Assembly: GCA_905182635.1 (NCBI GenBank)
Contig: CAJJCM010000026.1
Location: 3,568-67,567, forward strand
Length of the DNA: 64,000 nt
Reading direction: 5' to 3'
Origin: an uncultured Candidatus Poseidoniales archaeon
GTDB lineage: Archaea; Thermoplasmatota; Poseidoniia; Poseidoniales; Poseidoniaceae
Shown: positions 8,420 through 58,775 of the stretch, one piece after another
How positions within the stretch are numbered: the stretch's first letter is position 1
Layout: every line of letters starts with the position of its first letter
Translations under genes and position numbers: made by a program
Notes under the pieces: model-generated
Told to the model about the DNA's origin: nothing
The model's database searches: none
Seen by the model: only the letters and a program-made list of their open reading frames with translations

Positions 8420-11400
8420 TCACTTTTTCATCGCATCGACGTATTGCCATCCGAAATGGCTCCATTGATCAAGGGTCCATCCCTGAGGTAAGCCAGTAGG
8501 TGGAATTGGTGGTGGGTCACGTGCAGTTTCAAGGGCCGGAGGTGCTGCAACTGGCTCTGCAACTGATTGCGGTGGAGGAAGAACCAATCCAATTGGTGGA
8601 GGGATATTTATATCAATTTGAGGAAGCGTCTTTGAAAGATTTAACTCTTCGAGAACATCCTCAGTTTGGTCTTCTACACCGGGTTCTAATTCACCCGAAC
8701 GAATCCGACGATTCACCACTAACAACCACATCGCAAGGCTGAGCGAGACCAGTGCAATGAGGTAGAGCACTATACTGAAAGTTCCTTCCTGTGCCTGAAG
8801 GGCAAGGGCTTCACCATCTCGAATAGTTTCTTCTTTGATGAGCAGTGGGTCGAGCGTTTTACGGTCCATTTCAACTTCATCAACCAAGACAAGAAGACGG
8901 AATTCGATATTTTCACCTGCTTTGACATTGGCGACTGTCGGGAGGGTTCCCGTGATTACAGCACCCGCAGTGGCCACAAGGTCGACACGAGCGGTATCTT
9001 GCCAGAAACCTCCATCAACTGCTCGTTGCAATACAAATGCCACATCACCTTTGCCTCCAAGGTTGCGCACTTCGAAGCCAAGTTCTACAGCTTGTTCCGA
9101 AATTGGACTTGGGTCATCCCATGAAAAGAAACTGGTTGCTGCATCAAGGTCAATACTCGGCCCGAGCAAAGCCAGGGACCAAGAGGCGATTGGTTGACTC
9201 ATTGAATTACCAAGAGTATTGAACGGATTACCCGCTGAATCAGAACCTGAAACCCAGATATCGACCATATACGATGGTAGAAGTGTCGTTGAACCAGAGT
9301 CGGTGAGGTCGAGATTCCCTGTCCAGAAAAATTGCTCGCCGAAAGGAGTCGTATCAGGCAAAGGTACACTACCTCGTGAAATCGATGCTTCACCTGCACG
9401 AACTCGATAATGCAAGACGACTGGCTTATAGAGGTCAAATCCATGGTCGTCGACTGTTTCAAGCATGACGAGTAAATCGCCACAAGCGCCAATCGAAAGG
9501 TCGGAACCAGCTGAAACTTCATTCAAAGAAATAGCAGCAATATTCGGTCGTGAACTGTCTACAGCTAATCGAACCCGCTGAACCGACGGAGTTTCATCCA
9601 TAGCCAAACCAGGTAAATCACTGAGTTCAAGACGTAAGTCAAGGTGACCAGAAGGTACCGACGGAATCAACAGATCGAGGCTAAACTCTCCATCAGAACG
9701 AGTTGATGTTTTCCATGTGTTATCGTAATCTCCAAAAACAACATCAAACGCACCGGGTGGTGCAGGTGTTTCATCCTCTGAAAAGAGCACTCGACCATTG
9801 ACACGTAATGCTTGGCCAGCACCGATGAGCGTTTCTTTGAAATCAGAATTATAGTGGTTGGTTCCATCTCGTAATTCAACAGCACGAATATGACCTTCCG
9901 TGGTATCAAACCTAAAGTCATTATCAAGGCTCCATGCATCGTTCCCTAAGCCAGCAGTTGCTTCGAAGCAGGGGGTTTCTTCCCCCACATTACAAGGTAA
10001 ATCAGTGACCATTACCTTTGGAATAATTTGACTTAGCCCATTTGTATCAAATGATTCAGGAAACGTCCAGGTCAATTGGAATCGTGCAAGGATTTTGATA
10101 ATACTGTTATTATTTTCATCAATATCAACGCTTGAGTAGAGGTTCGAGACTGCAATGTTTGCAGACCCGGATTCGATAACTGCAATCGGGTCTCCATCTG
10201 CGCCTTTGGTCAAAGTGATGAACATGGATGTTTCATCATCATTAAAATCGCCACCAAGTGCGAGTTGAATATATTGAATGTCTTGCCAACCGTTGCGGTC
10301 AGACAGAAGAATTTGTGCAGTATATGGGATACCTGGATGGAGTGGTGTTTGATCATCGTGACCGAGAATGGTTGAGTTGTCAAGGTCGAGTTCAGGTTCG
10401 AATTCGACTCGAATCCGATAGGTCGCCAAATCATTGTCCCAATTTGGAACGACTTCTCCAGGAACATATCCGCATGCGATGTTACTGACGGGGCAGACTG
10501 GCCCACCGCCCATGGCAATGTCATTGTCTTGTGCATCCTTGCCCGAAATGAAGTAAGATACGCTTTGACCATGCTGAAGCATTGAATCATCAATAAGACC
10601 GTCAAAAATATTTAATCCTCCAGTTTGGGTATCAGGTGAAGTAAGTGTTTTCATTTCATATTCATCAGCATTTGGCAAACCATCAAAGTTGTAATCACTG
10701 CAACCAATTGATACGCCGGCTTTACATCCAATCCAATAATTGAGGGTCGCTTGATTCGGAGGGTCAACTGAATCTTGAATCACGATGCTGACTGCTTGAC
10801 CACCTGGTGAAGGAGGCCCTGCGTGGCGTTCACTTCCATCATTAGGAGTCGATAAGAGTACAAGTGGTGAGTTTCCATCCAACACAAGTCGAATGGTATT
10901 GTATCCCGGGTTTGCATATACCGAACCGTTTTGCATCTGGATTGCCTCGACGTAGAAGACCATGCCACCTGGAGCAGATTCAAGTGGTGATTGGAACGTA
11001 AGATTGTATTCACCAAACGCAGGGTTTTGTTCTTGAGCCAAGAGAGTAGGTTCTCCAATTGGGTCTCCATCATAGGTGACATTTTGCCCTAACACACGTA
11101 AAGCAAACTGGCCTGCCAACGGAGTGAGTTGTGAATTTTGGAAATGGATACTGCCTGTGAACGAGAGGTTGAAACCACCACGAACCCAGTCTTGCGAGTA
11201 GAGTTCTCTGCCGGTTTCTTCAAAGACACGCAATCCATCCAACTGAATATCGTTTTCGACAATGATGTCTAAATCTTCAGTTTCCCAACCGGTGACTGCT
11301 TGACCTAAATCATCATCAACAGAAATGAGGGCTTGCAACTTGCTTTCATCATCCCAGGTCCAATTCACTGAAACTGGCATCCGGATGGATACCATTCCGA

Positions 11401-13870: not shown

Positions 13871-13892
13871 ACGCCCACCGGTTATTGAAACA

Positions 13893-16800
13893 TCAGTCTA
13901 TCTGACGTGAATCATACCGTATTGGAGAGGAGTCGCCACGAATGCCATCGTCCTCATCATCATGGACTTCAAACCAATCGACCATCCAATCACCATCCGT
14001 ATCCCAATTCATCGGATCTGAGCCTTCTGCAATGTGGTCATTATCCAAATCGAGTAAATACCAGCCGAATTCATGTTCACCAACTGCTCGAACAGGCGCA
14101 GTGTTTGGAGAACCAACATAGTAAATCTCCCAAGCATCTGTTCGGTTTCCAGCCAAATATATTTCATCATCACTTGAATCAAGAGAGAGGAAATTGATAT
14201 CTTTATCATCGACTAAGTATGCAAAACGGAAATCATTTCCATTGGATTTATCCATTTTCAAATAATTTTCAGCGCTTGAGCCATTCGAATCTAATTTCAA
14301 CAACGCGGCTCGCAATTGCCACCATTCAAGTACAATCTCTCCGTCATAAATCATGCCACTAAGGCGAACTGCATTCGGGGACGAGAGGTCGGAATCAGTG
14401 ATTGCATAGAATTCTTGGAAATTCGTATAGGGTTCATAGACACATCCAGCGCCTGTGCAATCCCAATTGCCATCTTGGTCAGGGTCATAATTCGCATCGA
14501 CTGGGTCAGCAGGATTCAAAGTAAACCATGTTGAAGATAAGTCTGGACGAGAGAGGACTCCTCCTGAGCCTTGCTGAGATAATGGCAAACAAGAATTTGT
14601 ATCGGTCGAACAAGTACCGCCAGTAGCAGCATCAATCCAAACGACTTGTATTTGCAAAAACGAACTGAAATTGTCGTTTAATTCATTCCATCCTTTGGAA
14701 TATTCAAACCAGTCCGGTAACATATCCCCATCGGTATCGTTATCACTTGGATTGATTCCATACTTGAACACTTCACGCCCATCTGAGAGGTTGAAGTCTT
14801 GTTGATGATAGACGACAACACCATTGGAAACAACCGTCGAATAGGAGACACTGTCTCCATCAGAATCGTTCAAATCAGGACGGGTCGAATTATCCCATTC
14901 CATTTTATTTGTAAATGGTAAGTCCCCAGTGCCGGATTGAATTATTGCTGTGCCAGGTGTGAACACTCGACCCGACCAAGAGCCTTGCTGAGCGGGTTGA
15001 TCGAAGGCAGAACGGTCATACCAGCCATCATGATCTCCATCATAATTGACATCCCAAGGATTCAATGGATTCGAGGCCCAATGGTTGATGGTTGAGGTAT
15101 CTTCCATTCCATACAAAGCATAACAGTATTCCCATCCATCCTCAATCCCGTCAGAATCGGAATCGGTACTCGTTGGGTCTGCAACTCCAAGCAGTGTTCG
15201 ATTGAAGTTATCGTTATCAAATTCGTTAATCATATCCATGCGGTCAGTACTTGATTGGCTCTTTGATACGAAATCAGTGTAAAGCGCTTGTTGAGCCTGT
15301 GCAAAAGTTATTCCAAGTTCTTCCATATACGCTTGCATAGCGTCATTTGCAAAATTTATAACTCCATCAGCAGCAGGAACCGAAAAGCGTGAGAGGTATT
15401 TCCCATAGGTCCGAGATTCCCATTCACGTAAATTCGAGAATCTCTCATCCATTGAAATATTACCATCACCGTCGCAATCGAAACTATCCCCATCAGTGTC
15501 AAGATTGACATCGTTATCGATGAGTGGATTCATACTCCAACGGTTCTCCTCCAAGTTCCATTCAGTAAACCAGTATTCAAATCCATCATACATGCCATCA
15601 TCATCCGTATCCGGATTGGTCGGGTCAGTCATGCCGAGGAGTGTTGAAAGAATAGCATTCGGTGGGACACCTGTCTGCCAATCATTGTAATCATTCAACA
15701 AACGCTTTCCACGAGTTTCTTTGGTGATGAGGATGTTGAAGACTCGCTGAGCTTTTTCTGTTGGTTGTTGTATATCTCCATCGAGGTGCAGGAGTGGGGC
15801 ATCAGAAGGATGTTCTAATCCATTCACTGGATTCTCAATGGCAACGGCAAATTCCTGACGGTCAATAAGGCCATCTCCATCACCATCAAATCCACCATCA
15901 CCAGGCACCAGCGGATTAAGAGTCCAAGTCTGAGCCGATACATTCCAAGAAGTAAACAGTTGTTCAATTCCGTCGATCATCCCGTCTCCGTCTGTGTCGA
16001 CGTTGTTCGGGTCAGAAGTCCAACCGGTCAAGTTCACTTGGTCAGAGGTGATAAAGGAGCCAAAGGAGTATTCTACAGAGTATCCTGGCCATTGTTGTAA
16101 GGCAAAAGCAGAACCAATAGTCGTAACAAACCATTGAGGTGCTGAGCGGTTTTGGTCAGTTTCAGTGAATTCAGGAGATATTGCATTGTATTCTTCCCAA
16201 TTCGCCATACCGTCGTCATCGGCATCTTCCCACCGGTCTGAAGAATCCAATGGATTCAAAGTCCACGCATCGTCAAGAACATTCCAACGAGCGAACCAAA
16301 TTTCCCAGCCATCAGGCATTCCATCGGAATCAGAATCCGCATCGAACGGGTCTGCAGAGCCCCTGTCAGTTAGTGTTTGAAGGGCAGTAACCGAGCCTGA
16401 TGCTCGGTCTCCGAAATTCGCTTCAGGTATTCCTAATGCCGCAACATTCGTGAATAAATCGGTCGAGAAGCCATTTGGAATTGGCTCACCATCAAACGTT
16501 TGGTTTCCTGTGAACAAATTTGAACGGATATGGAATTCCAAATAATTGACAAAGGCTTCAGAATCGTCTAACACTCCATCGTGGTTGATATCATATCCAT
16601 CCCCGTCAGGATTTTTAAAGAGGTCGGAAGCGTTGAGTGGGTTCACTCCTTTCCGAGAAGGGTCCCATGTGCAGGCACCACCTGATTCCCAGCCGTCTGG
16701 CAAAGAATCACCGTCAGAATCAATGTTATTTGGGTCCGCCTCAAACCATTCCAAGGTCGAGTTCACAGACTCACCATGCGATTCAAATAACAATCCTTCA

Positions 16801-20696: not shown

Positions 20697-20706
20697 TCTC
20701 TCGAAT

Positions 20707-20726: not shown

Positions 20727-20743
20727 TGAAGGTCAATGGCTAA

Positions 20744-24509: not shown

Positions 24510-24510
24510 T

Positions 24511-46588: not shown

Positions 46589-46600
46589 ATTCGTCTAAAC

Positions 46601-47836
46601 TTAAGGCGTGCAGGGTTTCATTTCGGAGTTCGACTCCCGGCTGTCAAAGTCGAGTTGCCAAGCATTTTCACTGATGAACACACCATTTCCCGGTGAGGCA
46701 TCATTCATTGTAGAGTGGAAGTCATTGGTGACGATGATTTGGAAATTATAACATCCATCATCTTCGAAAAATTCATCTCTCTCAATGAATTCATACAGTT
46801 TGTTTTCGTCCATAGCGTTTCCAGGCATCGAGAACCAACCGTTTGTACTACCAAAGTTAGCTAAATCCTCATCTGCCGATGCTGGTTCCCATGTAGCAGC
46901 AAGACCATCCACCTTTATTTCTGCTGATTCATACGTTTGTGTGCTACCTTGGAGAATCTTCAGTTGGATTGTATAGTCCGACGGAACCGGTAAACGCTTT
47001 TGAGAAGTGCTGGACATGTCATGTTCCCCACCAACACTTGCAGCAGCGGAACTGGAAAACATTCCAACCAATGCCAAAACGGTGACACCGGTAACGAGTT
47101 GATCCCCCTCCTCTGTGGTTTCAGTCCGAGTGATCAGTTTAGCTGCAGAGTTTTCCACTTCACGATTGAGAAGCGAAGGTGAAATTTCCACTGTTGATGT
47201 ATCCCCGGTATTGGCGACCACACGTATTGAATAGGTGTTTACCGTACTCAAGAGATGGTCTTGTGAATTACCCATGAAAATCGTTTCGAGAAGAACTGTG
47301 AATTTGCTTCGGTCGTTACTCATATCCTTTGATTCGGACCAAAGGGACTCATCGCCAAGGAGAATTTCAGAGGTTGCTGAAGAAAAGGAACCTCGGACAA
47401 CAAAAGAAAATTCATTCGTATCTTCATTTACACTTATCTCTGAAACACCAGGGCTGCTTCCGAGTTCGAGACCTGCAAGATACGGTAGACCTGTTAACAA
47501 TAAATAGCCAACAGCCAGAGTCAATGTTTTTTGTCGGTCAATTGAGTCCCAAACAAGATAAAAAGAACCTGCCATAATCAATACAACAACAAGACCAAAG
47601 GGAATTGGTCCAGTGATGTCTTCGAGGAAATAATTATTCAAAAACCACATTAGGACGAATCCAAGTGCACCTAATCCCAAGCCAATTGGATTTGCTGTTT
47701 GGAGAAAGGTTTCACCTTTTGGGGTTGAAGGTGCATCAACCACCTTAGCAACATTTACTGTCACTTTTTTAGTGACAACTTCAGCATCGACTGTCTCAGT
47801 TTTTGTAGCGTTGGCTTTGTCTAGTAATCCACCCAT
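46601..47836 (-). CDS. Membrane protein (411 aa) with N-terminal transmembrane helices and a C-terminal extracytoplasmic domain
   Basis: Hydrophobic helices IGLGLGALGFVLMWFL, FGLVVVLIMAGSFYLVW and LAVGYLLLTGLPYLAGL, followed by a hydrophilic Ser/Thr-rich domain. Confidence 0.5.
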   Translation of the reverse strand: MGGLLDKANATKTETVDAEVVTKKVTVNVAKVVDAPSTPKGETFLQTANPIGLGLGALGFVLMWFLNNYFLEDITGPIPFGLVVVLIMAGSFYLVWDSIDRQKTLTLAVGYLLLTGLPYLAGLELGSSPGVSEISVNEDTNEFSFVVRGSFSSATSEILLGDESLWSESKDMSNDRSKFTVLLETIFMGNSQDHLLSTVNTYSIRVVANTGDTSTVEISPSLLNREVENSAAKLITRTETTEEGDQLVTGVTVLALVGMFSSSAAASVGGEHDMSSTSQKRLPVPSDYTIQLKILQGSTQTYESAEIKVDGLAATWEPASADEDLANFGSTNGWFSMPGNAMDENKLYEFIERDEFFEDDGCYNFQIIVTNDFHSTMNDASPGNGVFISENAWQLDFDSRESNSEMKPCTP

Positions 47837-47936: not shown

Positions 47937-48866
47937 TCACAGCCCGGGAGCCGAGTCATGCCAGACAAAGTCTTCTTCTTCGTCTCGGTTTTCTGTTAGT
48001 CGACGACCGGCTACTGCTGCAGCAAGGACGACCATTGAAAGAGCGGGAACGACTTCGAAGCCTGGCAGGTAAACACCACGGACATAGACTGTGATCATTT
48101 GTGATTCACGGATACATCCACCGTTATTACACTGGAATTCGGATTCTGCAAAGAAGTCAAGGACGTGGTAAGCATCGCTCCATCCCTGAGTTTTCGGTGT
48201 TCGTACCATGATTCGAACTTTCGTTGCGGTTGGTATTGCATCGATTTGAACCTTGACTGCTGGCAAGTTAATGGTGAAACCAGCTTCTTCAAGATTATCA
48301 CGACTGGTTTCAGTAATTCCGACCTTCATGAAGTCAATTTGGTTACCGAGGTTGTAAACTTTGAATTCGAAGTTCTTGTCTTTCTTTGGCATCAATTGAA
48401 CAAAAGGCTCGACTGCTTCAACTTGGACCAAAGAATATTGCATGATGTTGACAATCATGTTGTTCTGAGATGAAGCAGAGTTGACTGGAGGCAATGAGTT
48501 GATCTCTTGAACTGTAGCAGAGACCGAGAGTGTTCGACTTTGCATCACCATGTAAGGAGTCGCTCGAACCGAAATTTGGAAGTCGACTTCCGAGTTACCA
48601 CCAATATACATGTCACCAGGGGCTGCGGTTGCAAGACCATCACTGGTTACGAGAATACTAATTTTTTCTTGATAAGTGGTTGGGTTGTTTGCCGTGCAGG
48701 TTGTGAAACCGTTGTAGGTTGAACCAGGTTTGACTTCAATATTAATTGAAATCGGTGCACATGAAAGTGAGACCGCCGCAGTCGGGGCTTGTGCCGCAGC
48801 AGGAACGGCGACAATCATGACTGAGCAAAGGTAGAGGGCAAGCAAGAACATAGCACGCTTCATCAT
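47937..48866 (-). CDS. Secreted surface protein (309 aa) with a signal peptide and a PGF-CTERM-like archaeosortase sorting motif. The motif is followed by an unusual tail of about 20 aa.
   Basis: Signal peptide MMKRAMFLLALYLCSVMIVAVPAAAQA. C-terminal LPGFEVVPALSMVVLAAAVAGRRL matches the PGF-transmembrane-RR architecture, then TENRDEEEDFVWHDSAPGL. Confidence 0.55.
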   Translation of the reverse strand: MMKRAMFLLALYLCSVMIVAVPAAAQAPTAAVSLSCAPISINIEVKPGSTYNGFTTCTANNPTTYQEKISILVTSDGLATAAPGDMYIGGNSEVDFQISVRATPYMVMQSRTLSVSATVQEINSLPPVNSASSQNNMIVNIMQYSLVQVEAVEPFVQLMPKKDKNFEFKVYNLGNQIDFMKVGITETSRDNLEEAGFTINLPAVKVQIDAIPTATKVRIMVRTPKTQGWSDAYHVLDFFAESEFQCNNGGCIRESQMITVYVRGVYLPGFEVVPALSMVVLAAAVAGRRLTENRDEEEDFVWHDSAPGL

Positions 48867-48965
48867 AGAGGTTTCACCTATTAGTCAACCCCAGCAATGA
48901 GACCCTCATAACCGTTACGCCAAGATGGTTCCAAAAATAGCCTACGCTGACCTCAAATGATTAAG

Positions 48966-49039
48966 TGGGCCCGAAGGGACTTGAACCCTTGACCCCCCGG
49001 TTATGAGCCGGGTGCTCCAACCAACTAAGCTACGGGCCC
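48966..49039 (-). tRNA. tRNA-Met (anticodon CAT; elongator-type G1-C72 acceptor; could alternatively be a CAU tRNA-Ile2)
   Basis: Reverse complement GGGCCCGTAGCTTAGTTGGTTGGAGCACCCGGCTCATAACCGGGGGGTCAAGGGTTCAAGTCCCTTCGGGCCCA. 7-bp acceptor stem, anticodon loop CUCAUAA, T-arm GGGTTCAAGTCCC. No encoded CCA. Confidence 0.85.
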
Positions 49040-49082
49040 CTATGCCGAGGGAATAGGCGCAAGACAAGAACTTACCTCTACG

Positions 49083-50426
49083 TCATTCAAACTGAGTAAG
49101 CGAAGACTGCGAGGGTTTAATCCATTCACGGACATTGATTTCGAGTTCATCTCGAATCGCATCAGGGACGAAAATAAGCACTCGCTCGTTTGGCTGGCTG
49201 AGTGAACGGACCAGCGGCGAGTGATCGGCTGCATCTCGGCCATCTTCAAGGATAATTCCTTGTTCATAAGGCATGTAGCCACGTTTTGAGATGCGAGCTG
49301 TGATGACATCGATTGAGGGATTGTATCCAGCAGCTTCAACCAGAGGCTTGAGTCTTGGTAAGACCACATCAACCATTTCAGCAGAGAGGCCTTCAATCCG
49401 CAACGATTTATGGAAATCTCTACGTGAGAGCAAACGCATTGCATAATGGGCCAAAATTGTGTCCTGGTGCTCTGCCCACTCGGGTAAAGCCACGCGTATG
49501 TGTGCATCATTCAATGCAGCATATCCTTTGGCATCAAGTGCGGGATTCAACAACATATTCTCGAGTGGTGGTGAGAGTTGGAGTGAACCTTCTTTGGCAA
49601 GATTACGAGCACGTGAAAGCATTCTGACAAGATAATTTTGAGTCAACATATTGACTTTATGGAAATAGACTTGATGATACATATGGTAACGAGTAACAAG
49701 ATAGGCTTCGATTGCAGGCAAGCCCCACGATTTCACATAGAAATGACCCTCTTTGTTGACACGCAGCGCACGAATAACCCGAGCAATGTCAAAACCGCCG
49801 ATTTGTGCACCTGTATTTGCTTGGTCTCGAACCATGTAATCCATACGGTCAACATCCAGTTGACTGGAGACTATTTCTTTCATGTAAGGTGGAATCGTAA
49901 TCCCTTCGTGTTCAGATGCTCCATCCATGAGTGCGAATAAACGATCTCGGCGTTGTTGGCCGAGTACCTCGAGGAGTGCCATTCCGATTTCAGTATCTTC
50001 GGATTCCAGTAAGACTCGGCCCCAGTGTTCATGTGAATGATAGGTCGCAAACACTTCTGGAGTTTCCAACACGTGTGAAAATGGTGGGTGGCCAATATCG
50101 TGAAGCAATGCAGCTAATCGGATCAGTTCACTGTCTTCACCTGAAACAAGGTTGGGCTGAACTTCATTGAGCGAAGAGATCAATGTTCCTGCCAAGTGGT
50201 AGGCGCCGAGTGAATGTGAAAAACGATTATGGTTGGCGGCGGGGAATACATACTCACAGGTAGAGAGTTGTTGGATTGAACGAAGACGTTGAAACTCACG
50301 TGTATCGATTATTTTTGCATGGCTCGCAGGAACGAGAATATCTTTGTGAATCTCATCACGAATCACACGGTCACGCATAGCCATCCCCATGAAGCGGTCT
50401 GCTTTTCCATTAAAAAGGCCCCGCAC
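49083..50426 (-). CDS. HD-domain dNTP triphosphohydrolase-like protein (dGTPase / SAMHD1-like family)
   Basis: RDRVIRDEIH...IIDTREFQRLRSIQQL...RFSHSLGAYHLAG and LHDIGHPPFSH (HD motif). Typical dGTPase-family N-terminal architecture. The start may be an internal Met. Confidence 0.8.
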   Translation of the reverse strand: MRGLFNGKADRFMGMAMRDRVIRDEIHKDILVPASHAKIIDTREFQRLRSIQQLSTCEYVFPAANHNRFSHSLGAYHLAGTLISSLNEVQPNLVSGEDSELIRLAALLHDIGHPPFSHVLETPEVFATYHSHEHWGRVLLESEDTEIGMALLEVLGQQRRDRLFALMDGASEHEGITIPPYMKEIVSSQLDVDRMDYMVRDQANTGAQIGGFDIARVIRALRVNKEGHFYVKSWGLPAIEAYLVTRYHMYHQVYFHKVNMLTQNYLVRMLSRARNLAKEGSLQLSPPLENMLLNPALDAKGYAALNDAHIRVALPEWAEHQDTILAHYAMRLLSRRDFHKSLRIEGLSAEMVDVVLPRLKPLVEAAGYNPSIDVITARISKRGYMPYEQGIILEDGRDAADHSPLVRSLSQPNERVLIFVPDAIRDELEINVREWIKPSQSSLTQFE

Positions 50427-50475
50427 GCAAAAAAACTTGGTGATTTGCGAAATAACAACTGAATGCTAAGGGACA

Positions 50476-52257
50476 ATGCCTAAGCACGGGGGGTATGTGA
50501 ACACCAACATGGCAGATCCTCTGAAGGACATTATGCTAAAAATAACGGATGATAATCCTGCGACTCGTGGGCAAAAATTGTGGGTTATGTTTGCACTTTC
50601 TCTCTTCTTAGTTGCCACTTTGAATTGGTATGCAATGGTTCGAGAACCTCAAGTTGTCGAGATTGACGATTTAATTCAGCACAAAAATGAAGTTGTATTA
50701 GTCGAAGGAAAAGTCATTTCGTGGATTGAAGACCGATATGGCAATGGGGAAGACCGAGTCGATTTAGTTATTGAAGATGATACTGGCGTCATACAAGTAC
50801 GTTGGTTTTCAACCGGAACGATCCCTCCAATCGGTACCAATGTTACGGTGATGGGTGATGTTGTCGATTATAATGGCAGATTTTACATGCAAGCAACTGG
50901 TTCAGGTGCGTTGGATTGGGAGCCAGAAGATTTACCTGTTCTCGAACGAGTTTCTCTTTCAGATCTTGCCGTAGCTCCCGAAACCTACGTAGGGGAGATT
51001 TTGACTGTGACCGGATACATCAGTGAAGCTGTAAATCCAGATGCAACATTTACCTCTGCTTACCTCACAGATGCCTCGCACCAAATGCAACTCCTTGTTC
51101 AATCTGCTACAGGAGTTTGGATTGAATCCGATTCTAAAATTGAAGTGACTGGTATGCTCGCTTACCAAGAAATGAGTTTGCGATGGGCACTGATGACTCA
51201 AGGTCCGACCATCCTCGTCGTCACAAGCTATTCACCTCCAATCAATAATCTCGAATGGTCGGGTGAATCCACATGGAGTTACGAATCAGGAAGCATGGTC
51301 TCTATGGCAGGTACCGTATTGATTTCTAACGGCCAATGGACGCTGTCTGGGCCAAACGGCAACGTGATGTGTATTCTCCCAACCGATGAAGACATCACAA
51401 GCGCTGCTACGCAGGGTTACAACGGCTCTACTTACGAAGCCTCAGGCCGCTTAATGTGGAATGACGTTCGCAGCATGTGGTGTATTGATGCCAACAATGG
51501 TAATGGCACCAATCTCATTGACCCAATGTCCGCAATGTCGATGCAAGCCATGCTCTCCGCTAGCCCGGCATCAATGTTGCAAACACCTAGCAAACAATAC
51601 ACGCTCAGCACATTCATGCAATACTCCTTCGAACCACTCGATACGGAAGGCTATTTTGTTGATAGTCAGGGCTACACCTTTGGACAAACACGTGTGGCCA
51701 TGTCGTTCCCTTCAACACGAACCGAATGGATCGAAGCTGGTCAGGGCATCATTGCCAACGTCACTGTATCGTGGGACGACGAAAAAATGATGATGCGAAT
51801 CATGGTTGACACCTACCAGTTGGTTGGAAACCCTCCGGAACCTCAGACCATACTTTGGGACGCTGGAGCAACCCAATGGGGCTATACCAAGAACCAGTTA
51901 GTGTTAATCGATGGAAAAGCAGCCCTCCATGATGATGGCTGGTATCTCGAACGCCCAGGTTCAGAACAATCCATCAAACTAAATGTCCGACTCAATGCAA
52001 TTGGTACTGATACGTTGCACGAAAATCAATCCCTTACATGGAATGGAAGACTACGGCAAATCGAACATCCCAGTGATTTGGCTCTGGTCTTTTCTCTTGA
52101 TAATGCAGATGCTTTGGATGAGGATGGCGACCGTCTGGCAGATAGTTTTGAAGATGCCACCGGCTTCAATTCAAACACCATCGATTCGGATGGGGATGGA
52201 ATCAATGACCGCGAAGAAATGGAGAATGGAACCGGTCCAAACAACCAAAACTCCTGA
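50476..52257 (+). CDS. N-terminally anchored extracytoplasmic protein (593 aa) with a C-terminal TSP3-like calcium-binding repeat
   Basis: Single N-terminal transmembrane segment LWVMFALSLFLVATLNWYAMV. C-terminus DEDGDRLADSFEDATGFNSNTIDSDGDGINDREE. Confidence 0.5.
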   Translation: MPKHGGYVNTNMADPLKDIMLKITDDNPATRGQKLWVMFALSLFLVATLNWYAMVREPQVVEIDDLIQHKNEVVLVEGKVISWIEDRYGNGEDRVDLVIEDDTGVIQVRWFSTGTIPPIGTNVTVMGDVVDYNGRFYMQATGSGALDWEPEDLPVLERVSLSDLAVAPETYVGEILTVTGYISEAVNPDATFTSAYLTDASHQMQLLVQSATGVWIESDSKIEVTGMLAYQEMSLRWALMTQGPTILVVTSYSPPINNLEWSGESTWSYESGSMVSMAGTVLISNGQWTLSGPNGNVMCILPTDEDITSAATQGYNGSTYEASGRLMWNDVRSMWCIDANNGNGTNLIDPMSAMSMQAMLSASPASMLQTPSKQYTLSTFMQYSFEPLDTEGYFVDSQGYTFGQTRVAMSFPSTRTEWIEAGQGIIANVTVSWDDEKMMMRIMVDTYQLVGNPPEPQTILWDAGATQWGYTKNQLVLIDGKAALHDDGWYLERPGSEQSIKLNVRLNAIGTDTLHENQSLTWNGRLRQIEHPSDLALVFSLDNADALDEDGDRLADSFEDATGFNSNTIDSDGDGINDREEMENGTGPNNQNS

Positions 52258-52266
52258 GGTATTCAC

Positions 52267-53778
52267 ATGCTTGAGGCCTATTTATATGAATTGAGTTGGA
52301 TGTTAGCAGCCTTGTTCATGGGTGTTGCAATGGGGACACTTACTGGAATCATTCCAGGTTTTCACGTCAACAATGTCGCACTGATTTTACTTGCTTTAGC
52401 ACCTGCATTGTTAAGTTTAGGAATTCCTCTTTCGGCAGTGGCTGGCATCATTGTTTCAACGGGAACAGTACATACATTTCTCAATTACATACCTTCGGCC
52501 TTGATGGGTGCGCCGGATGCTGACCAAGCGTTGTCACTCTTACCCGGTCACAGGATGTTACTCTCTGGAAATGCTGCACGTGGAGTTGCTTGGTCAGCTC
52601 GAGGCTCACAACTCGGTTTGTTCCTTTCACTCCCACTGATTATTGTGGCTCGTATTGCCTTTGGTCCCGAATTGGGCTGGTATACTCAATTACGTGCCTT
52701 TTTACCATTCATTTTACTGACGATTTCATTATTATTATTGGCGACTGAAACCACACGTCTCGATTGGCCAAAATGGTTGAAAATGGTAACGCGCGGAAAA
52801 CTCGGTAACGATTCTCGATTGGCAGGTTTCTTTTCCGCAACAGCCTTTTTCTTGCTCACCGGACTGTTTGGCTGGACCATCCTTGGCCCGCATTCACTCC
52901 CAGCACGTTCACCACTTGACATGCCTGGAGCGAGTCTTTTACTTCCGAGTTTAGCCGGATTATTTGGTATAGCCAATCTCCTCGATATTTATGCAACAAC
53001 ATCCCATCTTCCTCCACAGAAAGAAAACTGGGATTTGCCTCCTGTTAAGCCATTATTGGTTCCATGCTTTTGGTCAGGCGTCGCAGGAGCATCGATGGGT
53101 GTCCTCCCTGGAATGACGGCATCTCAAGCGACTGTCCTTGTCATGGGTGGACGAAACGTCGCTGCTAAAATGCAAGGCAAACAAGGCTTTGGAATGGATT
53201 GGGAAACTCGGCGACTCACTGAATTAACCGATGACGAATTACTCGAAATTGCAAAAGCCGAATCCGAAGAGGGCGTCGAAGGACCTCAAACGAAGCAAGA
53301 TTTGGAAATTATTGCGATTCTATCAGCGGTGAACACTGCTGTTACAGTATGTGTCCTTGGATTCCTCTACATCATCGGCCGTTCACGATCTGGTGCAACC
53401 TTGGCACTCAAAGCGATGTACCCTGTCGACACGTGGAGTAGTCTTGAACCAACTGCGGATTTCATTCGTTTGCTAGCCATCACTCTTGCTGCTGGCCTCA
53501 TGGCTATGCCCATTATGCGATTCGTCGGAAAAGGTATGTTGCGACTTCACGCAGCAATTCCATTACAACAGATGATTATGAGTGTCATTGTTTTCGTCGC
53601 TGCTCTGGTGTTCGTCAGTACTGGTTTCATCGGATTAGCAGTCCTCATTGTCGGAACCATGCTGGGGCTCTTACCTCCTCGATTAGGTATTCGCCGTAGT
53701 CACGCAATGGGTGTTATTTTAGTACCAATTACGTATCTCTTATTCGAGAACTTGGTCGATAACGCAGGATTCCTTTGA
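52267..53778 (+). CDS. Polytopic membrane protein resembling the TctA family (DUF112) of tripartite tricarboxylate transporter large subunits
   Basis: 503 aa, at least 10 transmembrane helices. N-terminal G-x3-G-x2-PG motif (GTLTGIIPGF). Gly/Ala/Pro-rich repeats typical of TctA. Confidence 0.55.
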   Translation: MLEAYLYELSWMLAALFMGVAMGTLTGIIPGFHVNNVALILLALAPALLSLGIPLSAVAGIIVSTGTVHTFLNYIPSALMGAPDADQALSLLPGHRMLLSGNAARGVAWSARGSQLGLFLSLPLIIVARIAFGPELGWYTQLRAFLPFILLTISLLLLATETTRLDWPKWLKMVTRGKLGNDSRLAGFFSATAFFLLTGLFGWTILGPHSLPARSPLDMPGASLLLPSLAGLFGIANLLDIYATTSHLPPQKENWDLPPVKPLLVPCFWSGVAGASMGVLPGMTASQATVLVMGGRNVAAKMQGKQGFGMDWETRRLTELTDDELLEIAKAESEEGVEGPQTKQDLEIIAILSAVNTAVTVCVLGFLYIIGRSRSGATLALKAMYPVDTWSSLEPTADFIRLLAITLAAGLMAMPIMRFVGKGMLRLHAAIPLQQMIMSVIVFVAALVFVSTGFIGLAVLIVGTMLGLLPPRLGIRRSHAMGVILVPITYLLFENLVDNAGFL

Positions 53779-53858
53779 ACAGGATTAAGTTATTCTTCGG
53801 AAAGGCTTAGGGAAAGTGATATGCCCTTAGACCGAATCCATGGCATGTTGGTGATACC

Positions 53859-56800
53859 ATGAATGCCGTCGTTCGCTCCCTCTGCCTCGCAACCCTCATG
53901 GTGATTTCAATAATTGCCCCCTTTGGTATTTCATCTCTTGAAGAGGTACCTGATGTGCCTGCAACTTCCAGTCGTTCACTGGCTTGTACAGGTGATATCT
54001 GCCTTAACGAAGCACTTCCAAATCCAAACGGCTACGATAATGCAAGTTGGTCAGGTGGCGAATGGATGGAGATTCATAACTCGGGAAACACAACCGTTGA
54101 TGTTCGAGATTGGTATTTAACCAATAAGGCTTCCAAAACTCTGTACTTCAATTCGACCTCGATTGTTGATTACGATACTATGGATTCTACCAGTTGGGAA
54201 ATTGAACCGGATGAATACATGGTCATCGCTCGAAATGGATTGCCAAGCTCGATTTTTTATCTGGCGAATACAAATGACATCATCTCGTTGTTCAATTCTT
54301 CCGGTGTTCAACTTGACCAAGCGACATGGACCTTTTCATCCTCTGCTCCTTCAGGCTCAAGCCTTGAAGAAGACAGTTTCAGTGCAACTGGTGACTGGGT
54401 TGCTACAAACGGTCCAACACCTGGCGCCATCAACTCTGGAGGCTCAACGGGTGGCCCAACTGTATACCCTTCTGATCTTGTCATCAATGAAGTCATGTCC
54501 AACCCTTGGCCTTCTTTCGATAACGCAACATGGCCAGGAGGCGAATGGGTTGAAATCTTCAACTCCGGAATGACCGCTATGAACTTGACAGGATGGTCCC
54601 TTCAAGATACTGCAGGCAATATTCTTGCCTTTGACGAAAACCATCTCGTCGGATATACGAACGATTCCAATTCGACCATCATCGCTCCGGGTGATACAAG
54701 AATCATTGCCGTTAACGGTTCTGGGAATTCTGGTGTATTGAACAATGGTGTCGAAACATTATCCTTGTTTTGGCCAAATGGAACCAAAGCACAACAAATC
54801 TCTTGGACTGATACTGAAGCTGGATTCGCACTTGTCGAGAGTTCATCATCCCAATACTGGACCTATGCTGCCTACCCAACTCCAAATGCAAGTAACCCTC
54901 TTGATTTTTCTATAATTGCCTCTACTCCCTCACCAATTGAATTTGCTGAATTATTATCAAACAGCAGTTCAGATGGTTCTACTTTCCCAGATGGGGAGTG
55001 GATTGAATTGCTCAATACTGGAAACACAACGGTGGATTTGTCAGGTTGGTCAGTCATTGATGGAATGGGTAATGTCACGTATCTAGACCCTGGTTCACTT
55101 GTCTTCAACCAAACTCAAGGTGCTACTTCAATTGATGCTGAAGAGCGACGACTGATTCAATTTAATGCTGATACTGAACTATGGGATTATTACAATCAAC
55201 TCATGCTTCGTGATTCAACTGGATTGATTGTTGATTCTGCTTGGTATACAACTGATTACGGTGAAAACATTTCGCTGATTCCTGCGGAAATGGATGCAGA
55301 CCCATGGGTCCCATCAACCTGGATGACACCCGGTCAACCAGACCCTGGTGAAACACCTTCAACAGGCCTCGCGATTTTCACCGAAGTATTTCCGGATGCT
55401 GTTGGCAATGATAATCAACAATGGCCCCTTGGAGAATGGCTTGAAATATACAACAATGGGACCGCTGCGCTTGACGTAGGTGGGTGGAAATTACAGTCCT
55501 CCAATAGTCGTTCACTGACTCTGCATCAATTCAACATGCCGCTCCAAGCAACCTCGATTATTCAACCGGGAGATGTCGCATTAATTGCTTTGAATGGTAC
55601 CACAAGTTTTTACCTAAAACACACGACTCCAGACTCTATTATCTTGATTGATGGAAACGGGAACATGGTTGATTCTATCTCTTGGGTTTCTACGACTGAA
55701 GGTGAATCTTTGATTGCTCCAAACAGCACGCACGCAGGTGCTGGACCTCTTGGAACAGGTGCATCAAACGGCAGTGATTGGATTCAATCCGCTTGGGCAA
55801 CTCCAGGCGAGGGGAATCCAGTTTGGCCAATGTATGCAGGCACCCATGACCTGGTTCTCACTGAAATTTTGGCGTATTGCAATGATGATTCAATCGACCC
55901 ACTGGAAGATTGGGTCGAAGTCATGAACGTTGGCACTCTTGATCTCAATTTGAGCCGATGGAGAGTTGATTCAAGTGATGGAGACCGACGCTTTTTCAGA
56001 ACAACTTCAATGTGGAATCAAACTGATGATTCGATGCTCCTCGCCCCACAAGAGCGCGCTGTCCTGCTGATGGAAAACAATGTAATTTCAGGTTTAGGAG
56101 ACCAATTACAACTCTCGGATCCTGATGGGAATTCGGTTCAAATGGCACAATGGAACATCGTCAGTGATTGCCAAACGATGGGGCCTGGCGAGACTGAACT
56201 CGACGGTTGGGAATTACTCCTTTGGCCAACTCCTGGCTACGAAGAGCCAGATGCGACCCTTTTTGCTGAGGCACAAGATATTGTCTTCAGCCGCTTTATG
56301 CCCGAAGGTTCAACCTCCATTTCAAGTAATACAGAATTCATTGAAATTACGAACATCGGTGATAGCCTTGCTTACATGGAGGGATGGACCTTCACACTCA
56401 TCAATTCAGCAAATGAAGCCACGGATTATTCCTTTGGTGAAGTCGCGATTCCTTCCAACGGTTCGGTGATTCTTGCTTCAGACCCAAGCGGTCTTTCTGT
56501 CTACGAAGATGGCACAATCATTGGATTTGATTCTGCCATGTCCATCTCGGGATTGACACTTCCTGATTCAGGGGCTGCTCTTCAGATATCAACGCCTTCG
56601 GGTGTCCTTGCAGATACAGTGGTCTACGGTAACGGTCCAGTTGAATCCGCAGGTTGGAGTGGTATTAGTTTGGTCGAACCTGTCACCAGTCTTTCTCTTC
56701 TTGTTTATCATCGCGGCGATGGATGTGGCAATTTACCAGATACTGATGTCGCCTTGGATTGGCAACATCGTTGGGGACGTTTAGGTGCAAGCACCTTCTG

Positions 56801-58775
56801 TGGTCCAACACTGTTCTCAGGCATAAGTACCATCACGCCATTGATTGGTCCTCAAGAAGGCCTCGTTGACTTGGTCGCCTGGATTGACAATGCTACTGAA
56901 TCGTTACATGTTCACCTTTATCAGATCGAACAGCCAAATTTGGTTCAAGCACTCATTGAAGCACATAACCGAGGTGTTGATGTTACCGTAGTTCTTAACG
57001 CTGCGGAATACTGGTGGAATAATTACGATAAGAACAACCAACTCGGCACGGCAAACATACTTGCAACTGCTGGAATCAATACGTTCTGGTTTGGTGGACA
57101 AAATGATGACCCTTATTCCTATATTCACAGCAAAGTAGCCGTAAAAGACAATGGAAGTGTATGGATTGGTTCAGGTAATTGGAAGAGTTCCTCACAACCT
57201 GCACCTGGTGAACGCGGAAACTCTGAATGGGGAGTCTTAATCGATAACGCAGACCTTGCTCAAAAGGTCATGAATCAACTTGCCTATGATGAATCTTCGA
57301 GTCGCACCTACATCACACAAGTCTACCCAGGTTCAGCACCATCCGATTGGTCGATGGATGCACTCAAACCCCTTGTCAATGGAACGATGGCGGAACCGAT
57401 TACAACCAATGTGTCTGGCCGTCTCATCACGTGCCCAGACACTTGTATTGACGGCTTGGTCTGGATGATTGAACAAGCAGATGAAGAAATTCTATTGTCG
57501 TTGCAATATCTCGATGTGGATTGGAGCTGGGGTTGGGGAGAGAATCCAATTGTCACCGCTTTGGAAAACGCTGCACAAAGTGGCATTCGTATTCGTTTGA
57601 TTTTGAACGGTGCTTATCTCGATAAGGATATTCAAGATGTCGTTGATACCTTCAATGAAGAATGGAACTCGACCCTTGGATACGACATCAATGCGATCAT
57701 CATGAGTGAAGATGATGAAGTTTCGAAATTGCATAACAAGGGTGTTATTGTTGATGCTGAGCACGTACTGATTTCATCAATTAATTGGGGTGATTCTGCC
57801 ACAACACGGAACCGTGAAATGGGCCTCATTCTCAGTAGCGCAGAAGTCACTGCTCCTTTCCTTGCTGGATGGTATCGGGATTGGGTCCGTACTGACAATG
57901 TGACGGATACCGATAACGATGGTCTGCCGGATTATTGGGAAGTGGCCAATGGACTCAACCGTACAACACGCACTCTTGCCATGCTCAATATTCTTGAGGG
58001 AGCGTATGATGCGGATGGAGATGGATTACTGAATGAAGTGGAATACATTTTCGGTAGTCATGCAACCAATCCTGATACCGATGGAGATTGTATTCCAGAT
58101 GCAATCGAAGTTTCGTGGGCACAAGCAACTGCTCAAGATTCTACGATTCCTGATGTCTCTCCAACCGCAGCATTGACACTTGCTGATGCTGATGGCGATG
58201 GTGTCAATGAATCAGAACTTCTTGGCTGTGACCTTGGTGGAATTCTGACTGATGGAAATCAAACTCTCATTGACAACAGCACATTAGATGATGACGCTGA
58301 TATGGTCATCAATCGGGATGACATCTGCCCGAATACCGGTGCAAATATTCCAGTTAACGTCGATGGTTGCTCGACTGAACAGAGAAATGCTAATGCTGCA
58401 CCGAGTGCCGATACAAGTTCTAATTTCGCCTCTGGAATGATGCTTACGTTCATGCTTGCAGGAATCGGATTGGCTGCTGGAGCATTCCTCATCTTGAGGA
58501 ACATCGAAACTGAGGGTGAAGAAATCAAGGATTTGATTACCATCGAGAGTGAAAACCTCGACGCACTTGCTGAAACGAATATTGATGCTGACAATTGGAA
58601 TATGCCGGTTCTTGACGGGAGTGGAGAAGCACCAATGCCTTCGGGACTTTCATCCGAAGATCTCGCACGTTGTCCAGGGTGGCCAGAAGCAACGATTCAA
58701 TCCTATCTTGACCAGGGATGGTCGATTGACCAACTGGCGGAGTACTATCAAGAACAGGTCAATGAACACGCTTGA
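53859..58775 (+). CDS. Giant (1638 aa) surface-anchored protein with six lamin-tail-like domains, a phospholipase-D / Nuc-type two-HKD domain, TSP3 repeats, a C-terminal transmembrane anchor and a Trp-containing tail
   Basis: Signal peptide MNAVVRSLCLATLMVISIIAPFGISS. Six LTD-like repeats (for example LVINEVMSNPWPSF...GEWVEIFNSGMTAMNLTGWSLQD). HKD motifs YIHSKVAVKDNGSVWIGSGNW (about 57122-57180) and LHNKGVIVDAEHVLISSINWG (about 57729-57790). DTDNDGLPDYWE and DTDGDCIPDAIE loops. Transmembrane segment MMLTFMLAGIGLAAGAFLIL. Tail ends CPGWPEATIQSYLDQGWSIDQLAEYYQEQVNEHA. Confidence 0.8.
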   Translation: MNAVVRSLCLATLMVISIIAPFGISSLEEVPDVPATSSRSLACTGDICLNEALPNPNGYDNASWSGGEWMEIHNSGNTTVDVRDWYLTNKASKTLYFNSTSIVDYDTMDSTSWEIEPDEYMVIARNGLPSSIFYLANTNDIISLFNSSGVQLDQATWTFSSSAPSGSSLEEDSFSATGDWVATNGPTPGAINSGGSTGGPTVYPSDLVINEVMSNPWPSFDNATWPGGEWVEIFNSGMTAMNLTGWSLQDTAGNILAFDENHLVGYTNDSNSTIIAPGDTRIIAVNGSGNSGVLNNGVETLSLFWPNGTKAQQISWTDTEAGFALVESSSSQYWTYAAYPTPNASNPLDFSIIASTPSPIEFAELLSNSSSDGSTFPDGEWIELLNTGNTTVDLSGWSVIDGMGNVTYLDPGSLVFNQTQGATSIDAEERRLIQFNADTELWDYYNQLMLRDSTGLIVDSAWYTTDYGENISLIPAEMDADPWVPSTWMTPGQPDPGETPSTGLAIFTEVFPDAVGNDNQQWPLGEWLEIYNNGTAALDVGGWKLQSSNSRSLTLHQFNMPLQATSIIQPGDVALIALNGTTSFYLKHTTPDSIILIDGNGNMVDSISWVSTTEGESLIAPNSTHAGAGPLGTGASNGSDWIQSAWATPGEGNPVWPMYAGTHDLVLTEILAYCNDDSIDPLEDWVEVMNVGTLDLNLSRWRVDSSDGDRRFFRTTSMWNQTDDSMLLAPQERAVLLMENNVISGLGDQLQLSDPDGNSVQMAQWNIVSDCQTMGPGETELDGWELLLWPTPGYEEPDATLFAEAQDIVFSRFMPEGSTSISSNTEFIEITNIGDSLAYMEGWTFTLINSANEATDYSFGEVAIPSNGSVILASDPSGLSVYEDGTIIGFDSAMSISGLTLPDSGAALQISTPSGVLADTVVYGNGPVESAGWSGISLVEPVTSLSLLVYHRGDGCGNLPDTDVALDWQHRWGRLGASTFCGPTLFSGISTITPLIGPQEGLVDLVAWIDNATESLHVHLYQIEQPNLVQALIEAHNRGVDVTVVLNAAEYWWNNYDKNNQLGTANILATAGINTFWFGGQNDDPYSYIHSKVAVKDNGSVWIGSGNWKSSSQPAPGERGNSEWGVLIDNADLAQKVMNQLAYDESSSRTYITQVYPGSAPSDWSMDALKPLVNGTMAEPITTNVSGRLITCPDTCIDGLVWMIEQADEEILLSLQYLDVDWSWGWGENPIVTALENAAQSGIRIRLILNGAYLDKDIQDVVDTFNEEWNSTLGYDINAIIMSEDDEVSKLHNKGVIVDAEHVLISSINWGDSATTRNREMGLILSSAEVTAPFLAGWYRDWVRTDNVTDTDNDGLPDYWEVANGLNRTTRTLAMLNILEGAYDADGDGLLNEVEYIFGSHATNPDTDGDCIPDAIEVSWAQATAQDSTIPDVSPTAALTLADADGDGVNESELLGCDLGGILTDGNQTLIDNSTLDDDADMVINRDDICPNTGANIPVNVDGCSTEQRNANAAPSADTSSNFASGMMLTFMLAGIGLAAGAFLILRNIETEGEEIKDLITIESENLDALAETNIDADNWNMPVLDGSGEAPMPSGLSSEDLARCPGWPEATIQSYLDQGWSIDQLAEYYQEQVNEHA

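Follow-up and report, generated by a model that had tools for sequence, protein, structure and literature searches.

A collinear block of giant surface-protein genes, including an AglB/STT3 fusion, in Poseidoniales archaea

Introduction

Marine group II (MGII) archaea are uncultured and among the most abundant archaea of surface oceans. Here, we describe a block of genes for giant cell-surface proteins in one of them, a member of the family Poseidoniaceae (marine group IIa, MGIIa). The block spans positions 8420-58775 of a 64,000-nucleotide stretch of DNA (positions 3,568 to 67,567 of contig CAJJCM010000026.1, assembly GCA_905182635.1), hereafter the window, and includes a 3204-amino-acid (aa) fusion of an AglB/STT3-type oligosaccharyltransferase (OST) to a large ectodomain. 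An earlier note made from the sequence alone had judged that it looked less like core genome than like a specialised locus for adhesion or surface remodelling, and had left open how it was acquired or varied. We favour, with moderate confidence, a different reading: the block belongs to the core chromosome, is collinear among relatives and has been inherited vertically, and a large share of the conserved envelope proteins of the lineage are encoded in it side by side. The presence of such surface genes in MGII was already known, because widespread thrombospondin-type and adhesion-domain proteins are noted, in general terms, in papers on the group (PMC6461757, PMC4511931). In the literature on Poseidoniales giant proteins, we found no description of a fixed, order-wide arrangement in one ~50-kb core block, and in the literature on MGII we found no description of the cell envelope.

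In Haloferax volcanii, agl gene clusters lie around aglB, and AglB and AglD are known alongside the S-layer glycoprotein. Like archaeal agl clusters, the block places an OST gene in a cell-surface context, with surface glycoproteins as presumed substrates. Unlike them, it has no glycan-assembly glycosyltransferases or flippase adjoining the OST gene; a protease and presumed substrates are encoded beside it instead, and a substrate-like domain is part of the OST. The Haloferax AglB, AglD and S-layer glycoprotein are cited in a passage of PMC3750248. At the protein level, the closest described enzymes are AglB-L of Archaeoglobus fulgidus (PDB 3WAJ/5GMY/7E9S) and STT3/PglB, with which the block's OST shares the GT-C membrane fold, an external C-terminal domain and the EL1 Asp (GGSDPWY), DHD, TIxE and WWDYG motifs. 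It differs from AglB-L in its length (3204 vs ~870 aa), an extra multi-transmembrane N-terminus of ~370 aa, and a sequon-rich tail of ~2,000 aa with a second membrane anchor.

Flexible ('metagenomic') cell-surface islands of marine microbes are an established concept, and the block resembles them in packing giant secreted proteins, glycosylation and pilin genes into tens of kilobases. Unlike such islands, it is conserved, syntenic and compositionally native, and only one gene, encoding a 411-aa protein, behaves as a flexible cassette. A third comparison is with the wall-less Thermoplasma acidophilum, for which an N-glycosylated membrane protein coat is cited in a passage of PMC11407970. The likeness extends to membership of the class Thermoplasmata, a single membrane and anchored surface proteins that are heavily N-glycosylated, in MGII by prediction, and giant AglB is shared with other Thermoplasmata. 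The MGII coat, in contrast, is deduced from genes, and similar deductions failed for Cuniculiplasma.

Gene order, composition and selection

The purD sequence, trimmed to its likely start, has exact matches on marine metagenome contigs, and its relatives among species-representative genomes place the window in MGIIa. Gene order was compared around two anchors, purD and the gene for an MBL-fold metallo-hydrolase (MBL). We extracted 10 kb on either side of purD in 53 archaeal genomes (Poseidoniaceae/Poseidoniales metagenome-assembled genomes (MAGs), purD identity 59-88%) and 10 kb on either side of MBL in ~45 MGII metagenome contigs (52-93% identity). The proteins of the window were placed in all of these loci by tblastn, and at each junction only loci whose contig extends far enough were counted as testable. 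Domains were called with Pfam and NCBIfam, and transmembrane (TM) segments and signals with a Kyte-Doolittle hydropathy scan. The genes compared, with their positions in the window, are as follows.

7129..7920, minus strand: lipoprotein zinc metallopeptidase, 263 aa, with an 'LSGC' lipobox and a HEFGH motif; just outside the block
7958..8410, minus strand: conserved 150-aa protein without a domain match
8420..13870, minus strand: 1816-aa anchored surface protein, with a signal/anchor at residues 24-48, TM segment at 1695-1721 and a 95-aa cytoplasmic tail
13893..19646, minus strand: 1917-aa secreted acidic protein, isoelectric point (pI) 4.05, with an N-terminal signal and no C-terminal TM segment
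19818..20696, plus strand: MBL-fold metallo-hydrolase, cytoplasmic, housekeeping-type; synteny anchor
20744..21829, plus strand: pilin-like protein 1 (pil1), 361 aa, with an archaeal class-III-type N-terminus RAVSEVLGVVMMLAMVITI and TM segment at 26-56
21826..24036, plus strand: pilin-like protein 2 (pil2), 736 aa, with a DUF7289 N-terminus and a large ectodomain
24033..24509, plus strand: pilin-like protein 3 (pil3), ~158 aa from an ATG overlapping the pil2 stop codon, N-terminus RAAATELGYIFTFLLGVLLL
24511..27036, minus strand: regulator of 841 aa, cytoplasmic, with a winged helix-turn-helix (HTH_Crp_2), a STAND (AAA_16) NTPase and TPR repeats
27096..31529, minus strand: 1477-aa anchored surface protein, with beta-helix and Big_7, TM segment at 1367-1397 and a cytoplasmic tail
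31688..32911, minus strand: membrane-anchored S8 (subtilisin-family) serine protease, 407 aa, directly downstream of the giant OST gene
32979..42593, minus strand: 3204-aa AglB/STT3 OST fusion, with STT3 and CarboxypepD_reg
42771..44045, minus strand: purD (GAR synthetase), housekeeping; synteny anchor
44175..44840, plus strand: carS (CDP-archaeol synthase), membrane-lipid housekeeping (Pfam E 3e-27; NCBIfam PRK04032 E 3.8e-36)
44885..46588, plus strand: 567-aa anchored surface protein, with CARDB and an acidic cytoplasmic tail
46601..47836, minus strand: 411-aa membrane protein, with 3-4 TM segments and a ~290-aa ectodomain; hypervariable
47937..48866, minus strand: 309-aa 'choice-of-anchor T' surface protein (NCBIfam NF041740 E 4.5e-87)
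48965..49039, minus strand: tRNA-Met (CAT), between the HD and 309-aa genes
49083..50426, minus strand: HD-domain phosphohydrolase, dGTPase-like by weak matches, cytoplasmic
50476..52257, plus strand: 593-aa N-terminally anchored surface protein, with a TSP3-like motif at the C-terminus
52267..53778, plus strand: TctA-family membrane transporter subunit (Pfam E 7.5e-44)
53859..58775, plus strand: 1638-aa anchored surface protein (LTD-PLD), with six lamin-tail domain (LTD) and two PLDc_2 stretches

The giant surface proteins are encoded by single orthologues in a fixed order among purD, carS, the MBL hydrolase, tRNA-Met, the HD hydrolase and TctA. In the right half of the block, adjacency was kept at S8-OST in 33 of 33 testable loci, OST-purD in 52 of 52, purD-carS in 52 of 53 and carS-567 in 50 of 51. 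Further right, the counts were 32/35 (567-411), 28/30 (411-309), 24/26 (309-HD), 22/22 (HD-593), 21/21 (593-TctA) and 8/8 (TctA-LTD-PLD). The left half was similar, with 24/31 (1816-1917), 43/43 (1917-MBL), 41/44 (MBL-pil1), 37/37 (pil1-pil2), 35/35 (pil2-pil3), 35/38 (pil3-STAND regulator) and 32/32 (STAND regulator-1477). The arrangement reaches into a deep lineage (loci L101-L103, MBL 52% identical, OST closest to Thalassarchaeaceae-like representatives): L101/L103 retain the order DnaJ ... 150-1917-MBL-STAND-1477-S8-OST, and S8 and OST were adjacent in both deep-lineage loci that could be scored. At the right end, orthologues of the LTD-PLD gene (53% and 75% identity) share neighbours with the window onward to BaxI, a 2-oxoglutarate oxygenase, thymidine phosphorylase, tRNA-Asn, guaA and purE. 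There is no border between 'island' and 'flank'. The tRNA-Met gene lies at the same site in 12 of the 12 relatives checked, and the identity of the giants tracks that of MBL and purD. In the left flank, a pyroglutamyl-peptidase (C15)-NUDIX fusion at 5649-6695 is also kept in relatives, including the deep lineage.

Composition was indistinguishable from that of the flanks. GC content varied from 0.43 to 0.49 along the window without a step, and tetranucleotide frequencies of each 5-kb segment correlated with those of the whole window at r 0.85-0.955. Relative synonymous codon usage (RSCU) of the giants correlated with that of the flanks at r=0.965, with GC at third codon positions (GC3) of 0.405 vs 0.399.

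The eight largest open reading frames (ORFs; 1816, 1917, 736, 1477, 3204, 567, 593 and 1638 aa) are uninterrupted, and breaks of frame in giant ORFs were seen in two or three MAGs only. Lengths are tightly conserved in the 1816 and LTD-PLD families. The ratio of nonsynonymous to synonymous substitution rates (dN/dS) was 0.04-0.12 for the giants vs 0.04-0.07 for neighbouring enzymes; these ratios are approximate because synonymous divergence (dS 0.7-2) is near saturation. Individual values were 0.066 for the 1917-aa gene (the same as MBL), 0.036 for the 1816-aa gene (in the comparison with locus L062) and 0.07-0.12 for the 1477-aa gene. The giant ORFs are thus intact, length-conserved and under purifying selection, and they are not decaying, which disposes of the suggestion that they could be fragmented pseudogenes.

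Much of the inventory in the earlier note was confirmed. The ~50-kb run is rich in giant surface proteins, with eight intact ORFs of 567-3204 aa, N-terminal hydrophobic signals or anchors in all eight, and C-terminal TM segments in five (the 1816-, 1477-, 3204-, 567- and 1638-aa proteins). TSP3 (TSP3_bac just under the cut-off), Beta_helix, Big_7, CARDB and LTD matches bear out the listed TSP3-like, beta-helix, Ig-like and lamin-tail domains, and the membrane-bound S8 protease and the winged-helix/NTPase/TPR regulator were both recovered. Other entries needed adjustment. A total of more than 12,000 codons had been given for the large ORFs; the eight sum to 11,948, and the figure is exceeded only when the 361-aa pilin-like protein and the S8 (407 aa), 309-aa and 411-aa proteins are added. 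The lipoprotein metallopeptidase exists but lies outside the block, at 7129-7920. The OST is present, not as a separate gene but as the N-terminal third of the 3204-aa giant. The pilin-like operon has three genes with pilin-type N-termini, and its Pfam scores are mostly under the cut-off. The statement that only purD and carS interrupt the run was incorrect, as the MBL hydrolase, STAND regulator, HD phosphohydrolase, TctA subunit and tRNA-Met also lie inside it.

The AglB/STT3 fusion

The 3204-aa protein starts with a ~370-aa multi-TM N-terminal extension, followed by a core at residues ~371-1150. Next comes a beta-sandwich ectodomain of ~2,000 aa, in which at least four stretches resemble CarboxypepD_reg, and the chain closes with a TM anchor and a basic tail. 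Pfam STT3 matched above its cut-off. Residues 383-1001 matched archaeal STT3 in NCBIfam (E 4.7e-46; 157 bits, against a cut-off of 450 for archaeo_STT3), and phmmer aligned the protein to A. fulgidus AglB-L (AfAglB residues 38-292). The N-terminal extension had no Pfam or family match. Among 46 homologues, the Asp of 'GGSDPWY', T371/E374 (TIAE) and WWDYG are invariant, and 'DHD' is found in the consensus. The WWDYG motif, at residue ~963, was present in 18 of the 18 representatives checked; it is followed by a degenerate 'DLVSMFIW', read by eye, at the place of the DK/MI motif. An AlphaFold model of residues 371-1150 (pLDDT 87.2, pTM 0.85) was searched with Foldseek, and the top 19 PDB matches were all STT3/AglB/PglB (E 5e-17 to 1e-8, TM-score 0.44-0.62). 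By fold and motifs, the protein is an AglB/STT3 in a strongly extended variant.

The ectodomain is rich in N-glycosylation sequons (N-X-S/T). The protein contains 64 sequons vs 28 expected (z=7.4-7.7), most densely at residues 1700-2800. All 17 orthologues examined for it show the excess (z 3.4-9.5); of the 64 sites, 21 recur in half or more of the distant orthologues. Across the order, the protein aligns end to end, with residues 400-1000 and 1200-1900 best conserved, and the reading frame measures 3145-3266 aa in relatives. The sequon excess in its neighbours and in its own tail gives indirect support to a predicted activity in transferring lipid-linked glycan to the Asn of N-X-S/T.

An exhaustive representative search with the OST returned 252 clusters at E < 1e-30. 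The MGIIa and MGIIb homologues measure 3146-3228 aa and have the N-terminal extension. A second group of giant AglB proteins, 2,000-2,770 aa and without the extension, is found in other Thermoplasmata, including Caldiplasma sukawensis. WWDxG, numerous sequons and an anchor at the C-terminus are common to all giant-AglB homologues; on this comparison, the predicted AglB-ectodomain architecture is conserved across Thermoplasmata. It appears to be undescribed: no giant AglB fusion was found described in the literature on AglB in Poseidoniales, marine group II or Thermoplasmata. The NCBI label of the non-Poseidoniales giant AglB is only 'carboxypeptidase regulatory-like domain-containing protein', and automated annotation currently masks the OST of these lineages. 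Surface genes adjoin giant AglB elsewhere too. In a distant Thermoplasmata MAG (L145/L146, 1-8004), a 2,449-aa AglB fusion has immediately upstream of it an 8,309-8,356-aa gene (no Pfam match) and a 1,077-aa Ig/PKD gene, and in Caldiplasma a CARDB gene adjoins giant AglB.

We put forward tentatively, as a possibility on the doubtful side, a more general proposal. The N-glycosylating enzyme of Poseidoniales and many Thermoplasmata would be an obligate fusion of an OST and a sequon-enriched beta-sandwich ectodomain of 1,500-2,200 residues, tied to the membrane at both ends, and would serve as a main self-glycosylating building block of the coat of wall-less archaea; in Poseidoniales, it might be matured by the S8 protease. 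The giant fusion offers a testable lead on how glycoprotein coats are built in wall-less archaea.

Three independent Logan contigs (L003-L005) all stop at window position 41508, at the junction of the Poseidoniales-specific extension and the STT3 core (OST residue ~362). Either a variant in the population or a break in assembly may account for this shared contig end.

A predicted cell coat and alternative explanations

In the proposed scheme, the products of the block would be exported and stay attached to the single membrane through signals or anchors at the N-terminus and TM helices at the C-terminus, forming an acidic, calcium-binding, N-glycosylated coat of a probably wall-less cell. Glycosylation would be carried out by the block's own AglB/STT3 enzyme. 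As this enzyme is fused to a sequon-rich ectodomain of ~2,000 aa and tied to the membrane at both ends, it is likely to be catalyst and major coat glycoprotein at once. The coat would also bear surface enzymes, namely the S8 protease, the zincin lipoprotein and an LTD-Nuc-type phosphodiesterase. The S8 protease may process neighbouring products, and the winged-helix-STAND-TPR protein is a candidate regulator of neighbouring genes. With ~36 kb of giant surface-protein genes fixed order-wide in the core chromosome, these genes can be read as candidate components of the lineage's basic envelope and not as strain-specific accessories, and the block supplies a defined target list for metaproteomics, glycoproteomics and cryo-electron tomography.

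Several points weigh against this scheme. The functions of the proteins are deduced from domains and topology only, no values for these genes were found in a Red Sea metatranscriptome paper, and a sequence-based S-layer or coat prediction failed in Cuniculiplasma, a cultured relative within Thermoplasmata (PMC5155288). No cluster of glycan-assembly glycosyltransferases lies beside the OST gene, and a single GT2 gene was found at 4026-5057. A universal coupling of S8 to giant AglB was considered and rejected, as no S8 gene lies beside giant AglB outside Poseidoniales. The relatives are MAG and metagenome contigs, each covering at most 10 kb on either side of its anchor; the 1477-S8 junction is spanned by no MGIIa relative, only by the window and two deep-lineage loci, and giant genes were counted within the window. 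Finally, the housekeeping flanks are equally collinear, so the clustering could reflect general genome stability and not functional coupling.

Given this equal collinearity, neutral synteny is a serious rival: the surface genes would be neighbours only through the high synteny of Poseidoniales and the sheer size of giant genes, without functional coupling of OST, protease, regulator and giants. Housekeeping genes within the block are as collinear as those of both flanks, transcription is split over the two strands into five or more blocks, no paralogy joins the giants, and S8 is unlinked to giant AglB outside the order. Yet five proteins of >1,400 aa and at least six smaller surface proteins per 50 kb would be a high density for a small genome, and, by their sequon excess, the same proteins stand out as likely substrates of the OST. 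The occurrence of giant surface genes beside giant AglB in the distant Thermoplasmata MAG, and of the CARDB gene in Caldiplasma, also speaks against it; the former argues that the association of surface genes with giant AglB is not accidental. We rate neutral synteny as unlikely. A conserved battery of adhesins, expressed conditionally for attachment to particles or phytoplankton (a role already put forward for MGII in the literature) and not as a constitutive coat, is possible though doubtful. TSP3, LTD, CARDB, Ig-like and beta-helix domains are typical of adhesins, the model of the 1816-aa protein resembles integrin, biofilm-associated and mastigoneme proteins, and the adjoining STAND regulator could gate expression. 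In published work, particle association has also been linked to adhesion-domain and thrombospondin-type proteins of MGII (PMC4511931, PMC6461757). Against this, the genes occur in every lineage sampled and not just in particle-associated ones, their rate of evolution is about as low as that of enzymes, several members are themselves enzymes (OST, S8, PLD), and North Sea MGII populations were found to be mostly free-living (PMC6864105).

An accessory island for adhesion or surface remodelling, acquired or varied by an unspecified mechanism, is very improbable. Its content would be typical of marine flexible islands (giant secreted proteins, glycosylation, pilin-like genes); moreover, the 1816-aa gene is absent from 7 of 31 loci and the pilin operon from the deep lineage, the 411-aa gene is swapped between strains at a sharp breakpoint (46592), and a tRNA-Met gene lies inside the region. 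However, order and content are kept at essentially every junction in ~100 relatives, down to 52-59% anchor identity, with adjacency of 21/21 to 52/52 at most junctions, into the deep lineage. Composition and codon usage are the same as in the flanks, the tRNA-Met site is constant, and the giants diverge in step with their housekeeping neighbours. The earlier note was right that no transposase or integrase is apparent: none was found among window ORFs of at least 150 aa, and flanking direct repeats were not searched for. It had also named conserved order and content with core-like composition as the outcome that would refute the island; both hold, and the island reading is thereby refuted on its own terms.

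Surface proteins and neighbouring genes

All eight large surface proteins are strongly acidic, with pI values of 4.05-4.6. Sequon excess was found in the OST (z=7.4) and in the 1638-aa (3.5), 1917-aa (3.1) and 1816-aa (2.2) proteins, and in none of the cytoplasmic proteins. No match to an S-layer family was found in Pfam or NCBIfam.

The 1917-aa protein contains 11 TSP3-like DxDxDGxxD calcium-binding motifs, and its TSP3_bac match scored 24.4 bits, just below the 25-bit cut-off. An orthologue of 1895-1983 aa is present in nearly all loci, at 43% identity in the deep lineage. The 1816-aa protein had no Pfam or NCBIfam match. Its AlphaFold model (pLDDT 76.7) is an all-beta chain of Ig/FN3-like sandwiches with a propeller-like module; fold matches were to mastigoneme, integrin and biofilm proteins, that is, to generic Ig/FN3/propeller surface types, with no enzyme among them. 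The family comprises 168 homologues, all of 1754-1856 aa, all unnamed 'hypothetical proteins' and of Poseidoniaceae type. The 1477-aa protein matches Beta_helix and Big_7 in Pfam and has a right-handed beta-helix. By comparison with purD, the 567-aa protein evolves fast, with a median identity of 0.31 where that of purD is 0.65.

The cytoplasmic tails of three anchored proteins are rich in Trp. The 1477-aa tail ends 'QHPGW(I/L)WD..N.WVPDPNY' (codons 27096-27330) in ~30 orthologues, including the deep lineage; the tail of the 1816-aa family (8420-8540) carries 'LPxGWTxEQWxHYGWQY', and that of the 1638-aa protein (58650-58775) 'CPGW...DQGWSIDQL'. None of these motifs had a Pfam match. Lying behind C-terminal TM anchors, they may represent a common signal for sorting or docking. 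The 309-aa protein has a PGF-CTERM-like end ('LPGF', TM segment, 'RR') followed by 19 further residues, which hints at possible archaeosortase-type processing in MGII.

The 1638-aa protein matches LTD (E 2.7e-71) and PLDc_2 (E 4.4e-36) in Pfam, and its orthologues measure 1612-1654 aa. Both HKD motifs (HxK(x)4D) are intact, at H1090 and H1292, and the best solved-structure sequence matches of the PLD halves are Nuc (1BYR), NucT (6EHI) and Zucchini/MitoPLD (4GGJ). Both half-domains thus match single-HKD nucleases best; unlike Nuc, NucT and Zucchini, the 1638-aa protein has the two halves in one chain behind six lamin-tail domains, and it is predicted to be exported and anchored, with a cytoplasmic tail. 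It is probably an anchored extracellular phosphodiesterase or nuclease, with DNA, RNA or phospholipid as candidate substrates.

The S8 protease (Pfam Peptidase_S8 E 3.1e-36) has a TM segment at residues 54-88 and the D118/H153/GTS triad motifs. The STAND regulator matches HTH_Crp_2 weakly (20.6 bits), AAA_16 at 38 bits and TPR_12 at 74.7 bits; matches to MalT and AfsR are weak. At 50-93% identity, it is the best-conserved protein of the left half. The pilin-like genes have the N-terminal motifs 'RAVSEV..', 'EAVSAAV..' and 'RAAATEL..', read from the sequence. Pilin_N scored 21.7 bits (E 3.9e-4, cut-off 25.2) and DUF7289 21.9 and 27.2 bits (cut-off 27), with both under the cut-off in pil1. No pilus assembly ATPase, PilC-like platform protein or prepilin peptidase was found in the 64-kb window; these may be encoded elsewhere. 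The lipoprotein metallopeptidase gene runs in the same direction as the 150-, 1816- and 1917-aa genes. It adjoins the 150-aa gene in L075, L088, L089 and L104, and is absent from the deep lineage. Rfam returned no RNA family beyond two tRNAs in the window.

Two further origins or roles for the genes were considered and rejected. Birth of the giants by local duplication was rejected because they are not paralogues of one another: all-against-all BLASTP revealed only short shared TSP3 stretches. A defence island was rejected as well, with PADLOC yielding only generic TPR, subtilase, dGTPase and DrmC-type PLD matches, no defence-system assignment for the STAND regulator, and the PLD protein being exported.

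Variable spots

Variation in the region is confined to small spots: the 1816-aa gene, the pilin-like operon and the 411-aa alleles. The 1816-aa gene is cleanly absent from 7 of the 31 testable loci (L075, L088, L089, L104 and the deep lineage), where the 150-aa gene directly abuts the 1917-aa gene; it is lineage-restricted and dispensable. In the deep lineage, MBL abuts the STAND regulator gene, with none of the three pilin-like genes between them.

The 411-aa gene is the only flexible cassette in the region and undergoes strain-level allele swaps. Two allele classes, with ~38-40% identity, cross genus lines. The swap was seen in contig L003 (1-507): over 5 kb, this contig matches the window with 99.88% identity as far as position 46592; past that point it cannot be aligned and carries the other 411-aa allele (40% identical). 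The breakpoint falls exactly at the 12-bp spacer that follows the 567-aa gene, and a second assembly terminates on that very base. Such a sharply bounded swap site could point to selection by viruses or grazers.

Three further differences were seen near these genes. In L028 (3603-7552), an insertion of ~4 kb lies between the 411- and 567-aa genes. Lineage-specific insertions of ~0.9-1.6 kb lie between tRNA-Met and the 309-aa gene in L029, L041, L044 and L051, which represent several genera, and in L022 the tRNA-Met gene is on the opposite strand.

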